A program made the translations under genes and the position numbers. A stretch of 64,000 nt of DNA from positions 512,001 through 576,000 of the forward strand of contig JAXGMI010000002.1 of NCBI GenBank assembly GCA_040768745.1, in the 5' to 3' direction. A model generated the notes under the pieces. The model saw only the letters and a program-made list of their open reading frames with translations, did no database searches and was not told where the DNA came from. Source of the stretch: Desulfomicrobium sp. (GTDB lineage Bacteria; Desulfobacterota; Desulfovibrionia; Desulfovibrionales; Desulfomicrobiaceae). Shown here piece after piece: positions 13,502-18,249 of this stretch (position 1 is the stretch's first letter; each line of letters opens with the position of its first letter).

Positions 13502-14194
13502 ATGAACACCCTGACCTGGCACGGCCACTCGGCCTTCGCCATAACATCCGGAAATAAAACAATCCTCATCGACCCCTGGTTCGACGGGAACCCCTCGGCC
13601 AAGGCCGCGGCGGCGAACATCGACGCCGACCTGGTCCTGGTCACCCACGACCATGGCGACCACGTCGGCCAGGCCCTGGACATCTGCAGGCGCACCGGGG
13701 CCACCCTGGGCTGCATCGTGGAGCTGGCGGCCAGGCTCAAGTCCCAGGGTCTGCCGGGCGATCAGGTCCTGAACGGCATCGGTTTCAACATCGGTGGCAC
13801 CGTGATCCATCAGGGCATCTCGGTGACCATGACCCAGGCCCACCACTCCTGCGAAGCCGGCGTGCCCGTGGGCTTCATCGTCCGGCTGGAGGACGGCTAC
13901 ACGGTCTACCACTCCGGGGACACGGGCATTTTCTCGTCCATGGCCCTGTGGGGTAAGCTGCACAGGATCGACCTGGCCCTGCTGCCCATCGGCGGCGTCT
14001 TCACCATGGACGCGGCCCAGGCGGCCATGGCGACCATGATGCTCAGATGCAGGAAGGTCATCCCCATGCACTGGGGCACCTTCCCGGCCCTGGCCCAGAA
14101 CGTGGACGCCTTCAAAAAGGAGCTGGACAAGCTGGAGCTGGGCGACGCGTTGATAAAGGCCGAGGTCGGCGTGCCCGTCGGGCTGGTGCGCTGA
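13502..14194 (+). CDS. Metallo-beta-lactamase-fold metal-dependent hydrolase (UPF0173-like)
   Basis: WHGHSAF, IDPW, THDHGDH, YHSGDT, LLPIGG.FTM, PMHWGTF; AAGGAG RBS. Confidence 0.9.
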
Positions 14195-14320
14195 CAGGCC
14201 GCCCCAAAACGGTGATCTGCTGCGTCAGCGAAAAAAGCCAGGACGCGCAGTGTATTTTCGCATACATAAGCGGTCTGGCTTTTTTCGCTTCCTTGCATCT
14301 CACCATTTTGGAACGGCCTG
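14195..14320. repeat. ~126-bp imperfect palindrome, ERIC/MITE-like intergenic element
   Basis: Left arm CAGGCCGCCCCAAAACGGTGA...AGCGAAAAAAGCCAG is complementary to right arm CTGGCTTTTTTCGCT...TCACCATTTTGGAACGGCCTG. Confidence 0.75.
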
Positions 14321-14416
14321 CACATTTGGTGTTTTTTAACAGCCAGCCCTAAGACTTCACGACGCCCGGCCGGAAGCCGGTCCCGTGAAGACGGGGTGCC
14401 ATGCGGCGCAACAGAC

Positions 14417-14446
14417 AAGGCCCGGTCGATCGTTCGGCCGGGCCTT
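14417..14446 (-). terminator. Hairpin immediately downstream of trpB
   Basis: AAGGCCCGGTCGA-TCGT-TCGGCCGGGCCTT; weak U-tail. Confidence 0.55.
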
Positions 14447-14454
14447 CCTTCGTG

Positions 14455-15663
<1,209 letters not shown>

Positions 15664-15686
15664 GAGTGCCTCCTTGGGGTTTTTTG

Positions 15687-15721
15687 AAAAAAAAAACCGC
15701 GGTCAGTGTGCACTGCCGCGG
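15687..15721 (-). terminator. Attenuator terminator in the trpB leader
   Basis: Minus strand CCGCGGCAGT-GCAC-ACTGACCGCGG followed by ten T, ending 23 nt before the trpB ATG. Confidence 0.9.
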
Positions 15722-15749
15722 CTGGTATTCGCTTATCCTCTGGCGGATT

Positions 15750-15827
15750 TCAGGCCAACACGCATCCCACGGCATGTATTCCATGCCGCCACCAAAGAAG
15801 GGAAACGCTGCTGGCCGTGATTTTCAT
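15750..15827 (-). CDS. trpL: Trp leader peptide MKITASSVSLLWWRHGIHAVGCVLA
   Basis: 25-aa ORF with tandem TGG TGG codons (15789-15794), upstream of a terminator and trpB. Confidence 0.85.
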   Translation of the reverse strand: MKITASSVSLLWWRHGIHAVGCVLA

Positions 15828-15831
15828 GGAA

Positions 15832-15864
15832 ATTTTACTGCCCCATGCATTCCGCGTTTGTCAA
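15832..15864 (-). promoter_or_regulatory. Candidate sigma70 promoter elements for trpL-trpB
   Basis: TTGACA (15859-15864) and TAAAAT (15832-15837); the 21-nt spacing is non-canonical, so the pairing is uncertain. Confidence 0.4.
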
Positions 15865-15916
15865 GCGGGGGGGCTTGGGATAGAGAATGGCGGCGTGAAC
15901 ACGCAGGACGGATCCC

Positions 15917-16217
15917 ATGATCACCAAGAGCAACGACACCACCTGGCAGGACCTCATCCTCCGCATCCGGGTAGCACCCTGGTCCATGGGAACAAGACCC
16001 TCATGACCCCTTTCGAGTCGCAGAAAAGGTCCTTTCTGCCACTTCCCAGCCACATTCACGATCAGACCGCCTGCCTGGTCTCCGACCTGGTGACTACGAC
16101 CATCATGGCGCCGAGCACCACGCGGACCATCGAGACGACTGGCCCAACGCGCCAGGCCAAGTGTACTGCGCCGTCATCCATGCAGGGGTTTTCTCGCCGG
16201 AGCGCGAGGACTGCCTG
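15917..16217 (+). pseudogene. Frameshifted small cupin-domain gene
   Basis: Three frames join as MITKSND..W.DLI / TLVHGNKTLMT.F..QK.S.LPL.SHIHDQT..LVS / VFSPEREDCL, matching the small-cupin pattern. Confidence 0.7.
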
Positions 16218-16292
16218 GCAGATCAGCAGGCCCGGGAAGTGCACGGATATTCCAGGCATCGACACATCCGGTTCCGGACGAGAAAAGGCTGC

Positions 16293-17207
16293 ATGAGCGG
16301 CCGCGACGCATTTTCCCGCACCGTTACGGTGGAAGAGGCCGGCACCGCCTGCGACCTGCTGGCCAGGCTGACGGGTTTGCCCAAGGCACGGGTGAAGGAC
16401 TGCATGACCAAGGGTGGGGTGTGGTGGAGCCGGAACGGACGATCCACATGTCGGCTGCGGCGTGCCACATCGGTGGCACAACCCGGGGACAGTCTGGAAA
16501 TCAATTATGACCCGGCCCTCCTGGCCCTGCGCCCTGCACCTCCCACGCTCATTGCCGACATGCATCTGTATTCAATCTGGGACAAACCGGCAGGTGTCCT
16601 GGCCCAGGGCACCCGCTTCGCCGACCACTGCGGCCTGCCGCGCCTGGCCCAGTCCATTCTCGGGATGAAAACGGAGCCCCACCCTGTGCACCGCCTGGAT
16701 CGTGAGGCATGCGGCCTCATGCTCCTGGCTCATGACAACAGGTCTGCTTCAACGCTGGGGCGCCTCTTCCGCCAAGGGGCAGTGGAGAAGAAGTACGCTG
16801 TCGTTGTGGCCGGAATTCCTGACTGGTCAGAAATTGCGGTCGACCTCCCCCTGGACGGGCAGGGCTGCCTGTCCCACTTCACTGTGCTGGAAACGGATCT
16901 CGAGTCCAACAGCTCCCTGATTTCCGCCTGCATCCGAACAGGACGAAGACACCAGATCCGCCGCCATCTGGACAGGATCGGCTTTCCCGTCCTGGGAGAC
17001 CCTCGCTATGGCCAGGGCAATAGCTGCCCGAACGGTCTGCAACTCACGGCGGTCAGCCTTGGTTTCCCCTGTCCATTCACCCACACATGGCAGAGCTGGT
17101 CTTTACCGATCACCAGATTTCCGATTCCCGCCGGGCCCAAACGAAGATCCAACCAGGCTGATTCTCCCACACTTCGCCTTCTCCAGTTCCGGAAAGATCG
17201 GACTTGA
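16293..17207 (+). CDS. RluA/C/D-family pseudouridine synthase
   Basis: KPAG, HRLD, TGRRHQIRRHL, PVLGDPRYG. Confidence 0.9.
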   Translation: MSGRDAFSRTVTVEEAGTACDLLARLTGLPKARVKDCMTKGGVWWSRNGRSTCRLRRATSVAQPGDSLEINYDPALLALRPAPPTLIADMHLYSIWDKPAGVLAQGTRFADHCGLPRLAQSILGMKTEPHPVHRLDREACGLMLLAHDNRSASTLGRLFRQGAVEKKYAVVVAGIPDWSEIAVDLPLDGQGCLSHFTVLETDLESNSSLISACIRTGRRHQIRRHLDRIGFPVLGDPRYGQGNSCPNGLQLTAVSLGFPCPFTHTWQSWSLPITRFPIPAGPKRRSNQADSPTLRLLQFRKDRT

Positions 17208-17385
17208 ATCAAATCGAACGGAGTTTTTTTGTTCTTCCCATTGCGAAACAGCAAACAACGAGTTATATGAATAATAAATAAGTACCCCTTACAGGGCCTT
17301 GCCCATCTGCTTCAACCCTGTCGCATATCCCTCCTGGCGCCCTGGACGGACAATACCCACTCCCTTTTCGGGAAAAGGAGGTCGC

Positions 17386-17772
17386 ATGACGAAACAGATG
17401 TCCTTCAAAGCACAGCAACGAGAGGTGGAGGCCCGCTACAGGACCCAAATTGACTCTGCGGAATCCACAGAAGATGTGCGGAAGTTTTTTGAACGCACTG
17501 CTGTAAATTTTTTGCATCGTGCGGTCGGAGAGCAGGTCGATGTGCAGCCCGATGATGTATCCTTTGAACCGGACGCGGAACCGGGGTACGCACTGAGTGA
17601 CCGCTTGCTGAAAAACGAGGCCTTTTCAGCCTTGTGGGAGGAGTCGGATCTGCCTCAAATTCTGACTCTGTTGTCTGAGCGGGCCCTGAATCGATACAAG
17701 TATTTGGCCCGCAAGCATCCGGACAAGACGGAAATGAAGATTTTCCAGGTTTCCGGCCCCCGCCGGTATTGA
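17386..17772 (+). CDS. Hypothetical protein
   Basis: AAGGAGG RBS, 128-aa helical-looking ORF; probably co-transcribed with the usp gene. Confidence 0.75.
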   Translation: MTKQMSFKAQQREVEARYRTQIDSAESTEDVRKFFERTAVNFLHRAVGEQVDVQPDDVSFEPDAEPGYALSDRLLKNEAFSALWEESDLPQILTLLSERALNRYKYLARKHPDKTEMKIFQVSGPRRY

Positions 17773-17826
17773 TCCCTCAAAACCTTGTTGAAATGGACAT
17801 CAAAGACAACTTAAAAGGAGGACAAA

Positions 17827-18249
17827 ATGAAAATCTTGGCAGCGGTTGATCAATCGGAATACGCTGGCATTGTGCTCCAGAAAGCCGCAGAACTCTCCTC
17901 CAAGTATGGAGCGGAAGTGACTGCCCTGACTGTGACCAACCTTGCCTTCACGAACCTCTATATTGGGGAGACACCCACAGAGATAGTCAGTAAGGTCCGT
18001 GAGGGGATAAAGGAGAAGGTCAAGGACATCGAAGCAAAAGCCAGGGGGATTGACGGGAAAATCAAGTTCGAGGTGGAAGAAAGCGCTTCCCCTGCTGACG
18101 CCATCGTCAAATATGCGGAAAAGAATGGGATCGACCTCATTGTCATCGGCAACAAAGGTGCCGGCGCAATTGAACGCTTCCTCATCGGCAGCGTGTCCAG
18201 CCAGGTCGTGACCCATGCCCCATGCTCTGTGCTGGTCGTCAAAAAGTAG
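17827..18249 (+). CDS. Universal stress protein
   Basis: KILAAVD.S, PADAIV.YA, DLIVIG..G, LIGSVS..VV.HAPCSVLVV. Confidence 0.95.
   Translation: MKILAAVDQSEYAGIVLQKAAELSSKYGAEVTALTVTNLAFTNLYIGETPTEIVSKVREGIKEKVKDIEAKARGIDGKIKFEVEESASPADAIVKYAEKNGIDLIVIGNKGAGAIERFLIGSVSSQVVTHAPCSVLVVKK

Follow-up and report, generated by a model that had tools for sequence, protein, structure and literature searches.

A conserved Trp-Trp leader before a stand-alone trpB in Desulfomicrobium and a predicted sensor in the tail of TyrA

The stand-alone trpB of the window (the whole 64,000-nucleotide stretch of Desulfomicrobium sp. DNA analyzed here) is preceded by a Trp-Trp leader that is very probably a ribosome-mediated transcription attenuator, which, judging from sequence and modeled folding, would turn the gene on when charged tRNA-Trp is low. 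This mechanism had been proposed in a preliminary description of the same DNA and is supported by (i) conservation of the leader before 31 of 39 orthologous genes, (ii) covariation in helices 1:2 and 3:4, and (iii) folding with the Trp codons masked. Features of a classical attenuator found here are an ORF with tandem codons, a terminator, mutually exclusive 1:2 and 2:3 helices, and a cognate gene downstream, with the stalling step seen in silico only. Elsewhere in the same genome, the tail of the enzyme TyrA (prephenate dehydrogenase) is predicted to sense Trp before trpE, and this element would, if correctly read, matter more than the trpB leader.

Parts and conservation of the trpB leader

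All parts of the leader lie on the minus strand. The trpL-like leader ORF (15750..15827) has orthologs and encodes a 25-residue peptide, MKITASSVSLLWWRHGIHAVGCVLA, that is likely translated leaderless. Its tandem Trp codons, TGG TGG (15789..15794), form the putative sensor, and TGGTGG is nearly invariant among the 31 aligned leaders. Segment 1, the 5′ arm of the protector (15782..15788), pairs with 15776-15770. Segment 2 (15767..15776) is the partner of segment 1 (via 15776-15770) or, alternatively, of segment 3 (via 15774-15767). Segment 3 (15713..15721) is the 5′ arm of the terminator and contains an invariant CCGCGGC. The intrinsic terminator (15687..15706) is completed by segment 4 (15706-15697) and a run of ten T (15696-15687), with 99.3% of cells paired across the 31 leaders. 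The Shine-Dalgarno sequence of trpB, AAGGAGG (15669..15675), is located outside the hairpins. The helix energies are −14.0 kcal/mol for 1:2, −16.0 kcal/mol for 2:3 (as a duplex), and −18.2 kcal/mol for 3:4.

The 25-codon Trp-Trp ORF at 15827-15750, the three alternative helices, and the ten T were all found where the preliminary description had placed them. Its list of structures overlooked a long extra helix of 15819-15800 with 15768-15751 (spanning 15751..15819), which appears in both the MFE and the centroid fold. This helix, which is predicted only, would prolong 1:2 on untranslated RNA, and similar helices are predicted in same-genus leaders. The leader fold has an energy of −64.4 kcal/mol (z = −4.81), with none of 200 shuffles being equally stable. 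A simple terminator scan does not list the 3:4 hairpin because the hairpin is bulged. As a control for chance in the same genome, 82 short ORFs start 28-33 nt past a TTGAC-type hexamer; ten of them have a terminator-like hairpin downstream, and the trpB leader alone has WW as well. A second mini-gene overlapping the start of trpB was considered and rejected, as the frame from the ATG in segments 1/2 reaches that start in just 5 of 23 same-genus listings.

An unbiased search of 61 genomes at the protein level yields 39 loci of the stand-alone trpB type (at least 62% identity). Among these Desulfovibrionales orthologs, 31 have the leader upstream, comprising all 23 loci in the genus and 8 of the 16 outside it, with families f1, f3, and f7 represented. 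It is absent from the remaining eight, including locus L031, which keeps only a terminator remnant of the hairpins. At this locus (genome G047), the decayed leader has kept its promoter along with the terminator remnant, the Trp codons are gone, and ~200 nt are inserted before trpB. Leaders occupy the deepest branches of the stand-alone TrpB clade in a quick tree, and this distribution suggests that the leader is ancestral and was lost about four times.

All 31 leader peptides have WW or WWW, with the ATG and WW in frame and lengths that differ by whole codons. Neither the length of the peptide nor what follows WW is constant, the stop codon lying 1-14 codons past the Trp run. The preliminary description had likened the leader to enterobacterial trpL down to the WWR. 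The 1:2/2:3/3:4 logic stands, but the Arg is not conserved, since WWW, WWQ, WWL, and WWH also occur, and its presence here is attributed to the pairing of segment 1. The ORF of Desulfomicrobium leaders continues through segment 2, while outside the genus the peptide stops right after the Trp run. None of five distinct leader peptides looked up in a collection of 15 billion proteins was found there.

When an RNA model trained on the 31 leaders was run on 151 genomes of the order and 151 of the phylum, it matched 42 of the former, mostly the training set, and 6 of the latter. It adds four leaders of stand-alone trpB genes, two of them in family f6, and several of its weak matches are unrelated terminators. 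Its new matches also comprise WWW and Phe-rich leaders of other genes and Phe/Tyr/Trp leaders of the supraoperon, described below. A pattern scan of the genome collection returned at least 120 stretches, the pattern being too loose. The RNA model scored 4 of 80 fetched loci at E ≤1, and none of five pattern-scan loci inspected has a Trp leader before a trp gene.

Predicted switching and the role of the stand-alone TrpB

Two checks suggested in the preliminary description, masked folding and an alignment of the regions upstream of trpB in relatives, both agree with attenuation. In the nascent RNA of the window, the probability of 2:3 rises from 0.00 unmasked to 1.00 when the Trp codons are masked, and a switch on masking is seen in 27 of the 31 leaders. 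Segment 2 begins 19-25 nt past the first Trp codon, and a 2:3 helix of 6-8 bp is present in 29 leaders. In the other two (L025 and L026), no 2:3 helix reaches 5 contiguous bp, and 2:3 is favored even unmasked in L015 and L038. Once segment 4 is complete, 3:4 prevails with the stall mask in place as well (P 0.94-1.00); a switch must therefore be kinetic, as equilibrium favors 3:4. Masks for a ribosome at the stop codon cover segment 2 partly or fully by construction, and the low 2:3 under them is not independent evidence.

In the alignment, WW is conserved in 31 of 31 leaders and helix 1:2 covaries. Helices 1:2 and 3:4 have 93.5% of cells paired and six pairs with two-sided changes, which none of 500 shuffles reaches, although such counts are inflated by the relatedness of the leaders. 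In 12 divergent leaders, pairing of each segment 1 with its own segment 2 is worth −13.4 kcal/mol versus −9.0 kcal/mol for permuted partners (0 of 20,000 permutations). Helix 2:3 is conserved (85.9% paired), but the invariance of segment 3 leaves it, among the 31 leaders, without two-sided changes or any excess over shuffles.

The probable −35 hexamer of the leader promoter, TTGACA (15859..15864, minus strand), lies 29-32 nt 5′ of the leader ATG in all 31 leaders. A probable weak −10 hexamer, CAGTAA (15835..15840, minus strand), is assigned by its spacing, 18 nt past the −35 hexamer and 7 nt before the ATG. The corresponding position reads CA in most same-genus loci and is TAATAT- or CATACT-like in other families. 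The −10 hexamer is poor in Desulfomicrobium, and a consensus promoter scan returned no promoter. The fixed distance from TTGACA to ATG would place the start site on the ATG, pointing to transcription that begins at or beside it. SD-like pairing is found at 3 of 31 leaders versus 31 of 31 trpB starts. The trpB leader is therefore likely to be translated leaderless, as previously suggested. That suggestion gains from the TTGACA-ATG spacing and the missing Shine-Dalgarno sequence, but one of its original grounds, the nearby TAAAAT (15837-15832), is rejected; only 4 nt separate this stretch from the ATG, yet it lies 21 nt from TTGACA and is not conserved.

RNA contigs neither confirm nor refute the leaderless start. 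Four metatranscriptomes from one study give identical contigs over trpB up to ~15673 and none over the leader, a contig gap that proves nothing but lends the leader no support. An RNA-library contig of a relative (run X12) covers 15300-15805 and spans leader, terminator, and trpB, which is weak evidence as the contig may be DNA. One contig of run X16, for which the library is not on record, ends exactly at 15827 and is a hint only. On the far side of the promoter, a divergent cupin gene (window 15917-16296, plus strand) is frameshifted here and intact (112-116 aa) in nine relatives; independent contigs match the window at this gene gap-free, so the frameshift looks real. A ATCCGATCGATTAT-like near-palindrome adjoins the upstream side of the −35 hexamer in most same-genus loci (L003-L019) and is absent from the window; it is possibly a binding site or the promoter of the divergent cupin gene.

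In the proposed mechanism, the RNA would start at or next to the ATG and be translated without a leader. When Trp is plentiful, the ribosome would pass segments 1 and 2 to the stop codon, with the start of segment 2 lying 21 nt behind it and segment 3 ~28 nt ahead; with segment 2 covered or re-paired with segment 1, 3:4 would then form and transcription would end at ~15690. When Trp is scarce, the ribosome would wait at 15794-15789, leaving segment 1 covered and segment 2 free, and 2:3 would form ahead of the synthesis of segment 4, with the polymerase continuing into trpB. Untranslated RNA would fold into the extended 1:2 helix and terminate. The purpose of the switch would probably be to make Trp from environmental indole.

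The stand-alone gene (14455..15663, minus strand) is the second trpB of the genome and encodes an ordinary TrpB1-type tryptophan synthase beta protein of 402 aa with intact motifs. It scores 600 bits against TIGR00263 (cut-off 392) and 172.8 bits in the TrpB2 test with TIGR01415, below the cut-off of 518.85. The next gene is convergent, so trpB stands alone. The operonic copy is 54% identical and resides on another contig, with trpA in an aro-trp supraoperon. In the quick tree, stand-alone TrpB proteins group in one clade, separate from the operonic ones (SH-aLRT 99), and no close ortholog was found on plasmids (best ~61%). The trpB orthologs bear Desulfomicrobium names, in line with the earlier view of the organism as a probable sulfate reducer.

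TrpB alone is able to join indole and serine. Four near-complete genomes, G017 (one contig, 99%), G012 (99%), G029 (100%), and G032 (97%), keep the stand-alone trpB and its leader and have no match for trpA, trpD, or trpC; their matches to the trpE profile are weak and partial, or absent. The repressor TrpR has no match in any of five genomes. Fragmented assemblies and gaps can mimic gene loss, as illustrated by G010 (490 contigs), where trpD and trpC are present but no match to trpA was obtained. Since the gene with the leader persists without trpA, trpC, and trpD and TrpB can join indole and serine, salvage of indole is the likely role; this purpose, read from gene content, is assigned with fair confidence. 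Indole salvage by TrpBA is described for Chlamydia in the portion of that work available here (PMC7755916). The leader accordingly suggests that sulfate reducers, including lineages without a Trp pathway, scavenge indole under the control of Trp, which would tie them to other organisms by cross-feeding in digesters, in sediments, and inside animal hosts.

A rather less likely account accepts the attenuator and lets the extra TrpB boost the last de novo step together with the TrpA of the operon, or fill another PLP role. It fits the ordinary TrpB1 character of the protein and the fact that most relatives own both trpB copies and trpA, but the four near-complete genomes speak against it, as does the genome under study, whose tyrA and trpE carry frameshifts in comparison with G015, whereas the stand-alone trpB is intact. 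At G000:C1:1570376-1574004 (minus strand), which holds these frameshifts, aroA also looks split. None of 40 control ORFs is frameshifted, two that were flagged looking like shadow frames with stops. These defects reflect a possible decay of the de novo aromatic pathway, or else an assembly error.

It is improbable that the leader acts mainly in trans, as a released small RNA or peptide, with attenuation being secondary. Termination would free a stable 140-nt RNA, the rnTrpL/peTrpL of Sinorhizobium offers a precedent in the part of the source available (PMC6614838), and members of the genus differ little in the residues after WW; however, these residues coincide with the paired segments, and the peptide outside the genus ends directly after the Trp run. 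Least credible is a terminator controlled by a protein or ligand (riboswitch, T-box, or RNA-binding protein) with a WW frame incidental to G-rich pairing: TGGTGG does adjoin segment 1, where it might be retained for pairing, and leader translation is putative and lacks a Shine-Dalgarno sequence, but 31 of 31 leaders keep WW in the frame of the ATG although their lengths change by whole codons, no Rfam family attains its cut-off, and related leaders exchange WW for Phe- or Phe/Tyr/Trp-rich runs that match the downstream gene.

The TyrA tail and the supraoperon leader

When 652 terminator-like hairpins of the same genome were scanned, two further elements came to light, both outside the window. 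The first lies before trpE (G000:C1:1571938-1571818, minus strand; loci L219 and L221-L289 across Desulfovibrionales), with WWW at C1:1571938 and a T tract at 1571823. At this tyrA-trpE junction, tyrA itself would supply the sensor codons with its last codons, and there is no separate leader gene. The TyrA tail probably acts as the leader peptide of an attenuator before trpE, an assignment made from sequence comparison and pairing models; stalling at the tail would prevent termination before trpE via an antiterminator.

TyrA was searched with its N-terminal part, and thus blind to the tail, and 143 of 151 genomes matched. The sample comprises 69 loci besides the own one (29 best matches and 40 for spread), one of which was dropped as it ran off its contig. 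The C-terminal end is WW or longer in 67 of the 68 loci and has at least three W in 59, while W makes up 17 of 14,257 residues elsewhere in TyrA. Of the 59 tails with at least three W, 47 are followed by a strong terminator, versus none of the nine other tails, and where trpE directly abuts tyrA the run is WW in three of four cases. The 5′ arm of the terminator pairs with a G-rich stretch at the stop codon, 23-35 nt past the first Trp codon, in 43 of 47. In 30 of 30 loci (kinship not removed, one per Desulfomicrobium), this stretch prefers its own terminator arm to the arms of other loci, at −19.7 versus −15.1 kcal/mol, with −8.2 kcal/mol for an upstream control and 0 of 20,000 permutations.

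Outside the order, none of 26 TyrA proteins has WW at its end, and seven carry, close to the C terminus, one W as part of a WF motif. The Trp run occupies the position of the single structural Trp of other TyrA, and this residue may have been co-opted as a sensor. Several observations run counter to a sensor in the TyrA tail. Twelve WWW tails lack a terminator by the threshold used, WW persists in genomes without downstream trp genes, and the tail residues may be structural. In one pressure comparison of D. hydrothermalis, only trpE, trpG, and trpD came out above the threshold, with the upstream genes below it (PMC4162548, Table 1, source available in part); the pattern is compatible with a control point before trpE and is no test of one. 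If the TyrA tail does act in this way, an internal branch of the supraoperon would be tuned by codons of an upstream enzyme gene. Searches for leader peptides among small ORFs cannot detect sensors of this type, which invites a search for other enzyme tails.

The second element is a leader before the aro-trp supraoperon (G000:C1:1577094-1576945, minus strand; also L213 and L214). It encodes MANVTSTHSLYFFWYFYFNRACGLEVQL, contains eight Phe/Tyr/Trp codons, and has an antiterminator and a terminator. Its ATG is 34 nt past a TTGACA, and it switches in silico. Desulfovibrionales would thus plausibly possess three ribosome-read switches: (i) the Phe/Tyr/Trp leader of the supraoperon, (ii) the Trp leader of trpB, and (iii) the tail of TyrA, a view held with the same degree of confidence as that of the tail itself.

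Related leaders were noted elsewhere. Phe-rich or WWW leaders with the same terminator precede PaaK-like CoA ligases at L210, L212, and L215 (genomes G026, G033, and G030), a hint of salvage of arylacetates into Phe or Trp. In other Desulfobacterota, WWW leaders 30-36 nt past a TTGACA (L175, L176, L178, and L218) precede trpB2, trpE, and the gene of a TRAP binding protein.

Comparison with known systems

The trpL of E. coli has tandem Trp codons in a short ORF, 1:2/2:3/3:4 logic, and an intrinsic terminator. The trpB leader shares these traits with trpL (RF00513) and likewise has a Trp pathway gene downstream. It differs from trpL in being likely leaderless, in an ORF that runs through segment 2 (in the genus), in targeting a lone trpB, and in that TrpR was not found. 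The RF00513 Trp_leader model has no match at the leader up to E 10, and its best match in the genome, located elsewhere, reaches 21.7 bits (cut-off 41). RF01692 Bacteroid-trp (cut-off 49 bits) has no match in the genome, and a scan of 14000-18000 with Rfam gave five chance-level matches, none on the leader. Pfam leader-peptide families gave no match at E 0.1, where a 25-aa query has little power. The trpB leader is very probably a classical attenuator in a family that Rfam lacks. Sulfate reducers would thereby gain a conserved attenuator family without an Rfam entry, on its own a modest advance.

No description of the trpB leader or the TyrA tail was found in the full-text literature, a search with most subscription papers outside its reach. 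Lopatovskaya et al. in 2010 are said to predict attenuators in delta-proteobacteria and before trpB, so the family of trpB leaders has possibly been described before. In the available part of Table S8 of Naville and Gautheret (2010), a premature terminator flagged “sORF” is entered 107 nt before the trpB gene Dde_0079 of D. desulfuricans G20 (PMC2965389). Like the leader described here, this candidate is a terminator before trpB in the same order; unlike it, the row bears neither a Trp leader annotation nor a mechanism. The 22 of 45 “anthranilate synthase” rows available from the same table, which is ordered by species, contain no Desulfovibrio and span that position (PMC2965389). To call an attenuator before a lone trpB unusual, as was done previously, was an overstatement, given this candidate terminator before a Desulfovibrio trpB in the 2010 supplement (PMC2965389) and the attenuator-like element that trpE of the same genome has of its own.

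The motif SRC-39-1 (trpB motif) of Narunsky et al. (2024) occurs in Firmicutes and Fusobacteria, mostly before a transporter. Similar to the leader here, it sometimes places a terminator/antiterminator before trpB; it is set apart by its description, which in the part available includes no leader peptide (PMC11109978). The trpL/rnTrpL of Sinorhizobium meliloti is, in the available portion of the source (PMC6614838), a leaderless Trp leader with a terminator and antiterminator, as predicted for the trpB leader, but it precedes trpE(G) rather than a lone trpB.

For the supraoperon, Song et al. (2005) report in Table 7 a putative attenuator before aroA'-aroB'-pheA-aroF-tyrA-trp of D. vulgaris (PMC1173090), in the same place as the Phe/Tyr/Trp leader of the present genome. 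As far as the source was available, that table gives one attenuator, at the front only, and leaves the interval from tyrA to the trp genes without any. Among the sources available, the TyrA tail finds its closest precedent in the WWW of YtgCR in Chlamydia, where Trp codons inside a full-length protein gene serve as the sensor (PMC7755916). The two differ in outcome: according to the available part of that work, stalling in YtgCR promotes termination and lowers the repressor, whereas stalling at the TyrA tail is predicted to prevent termination.
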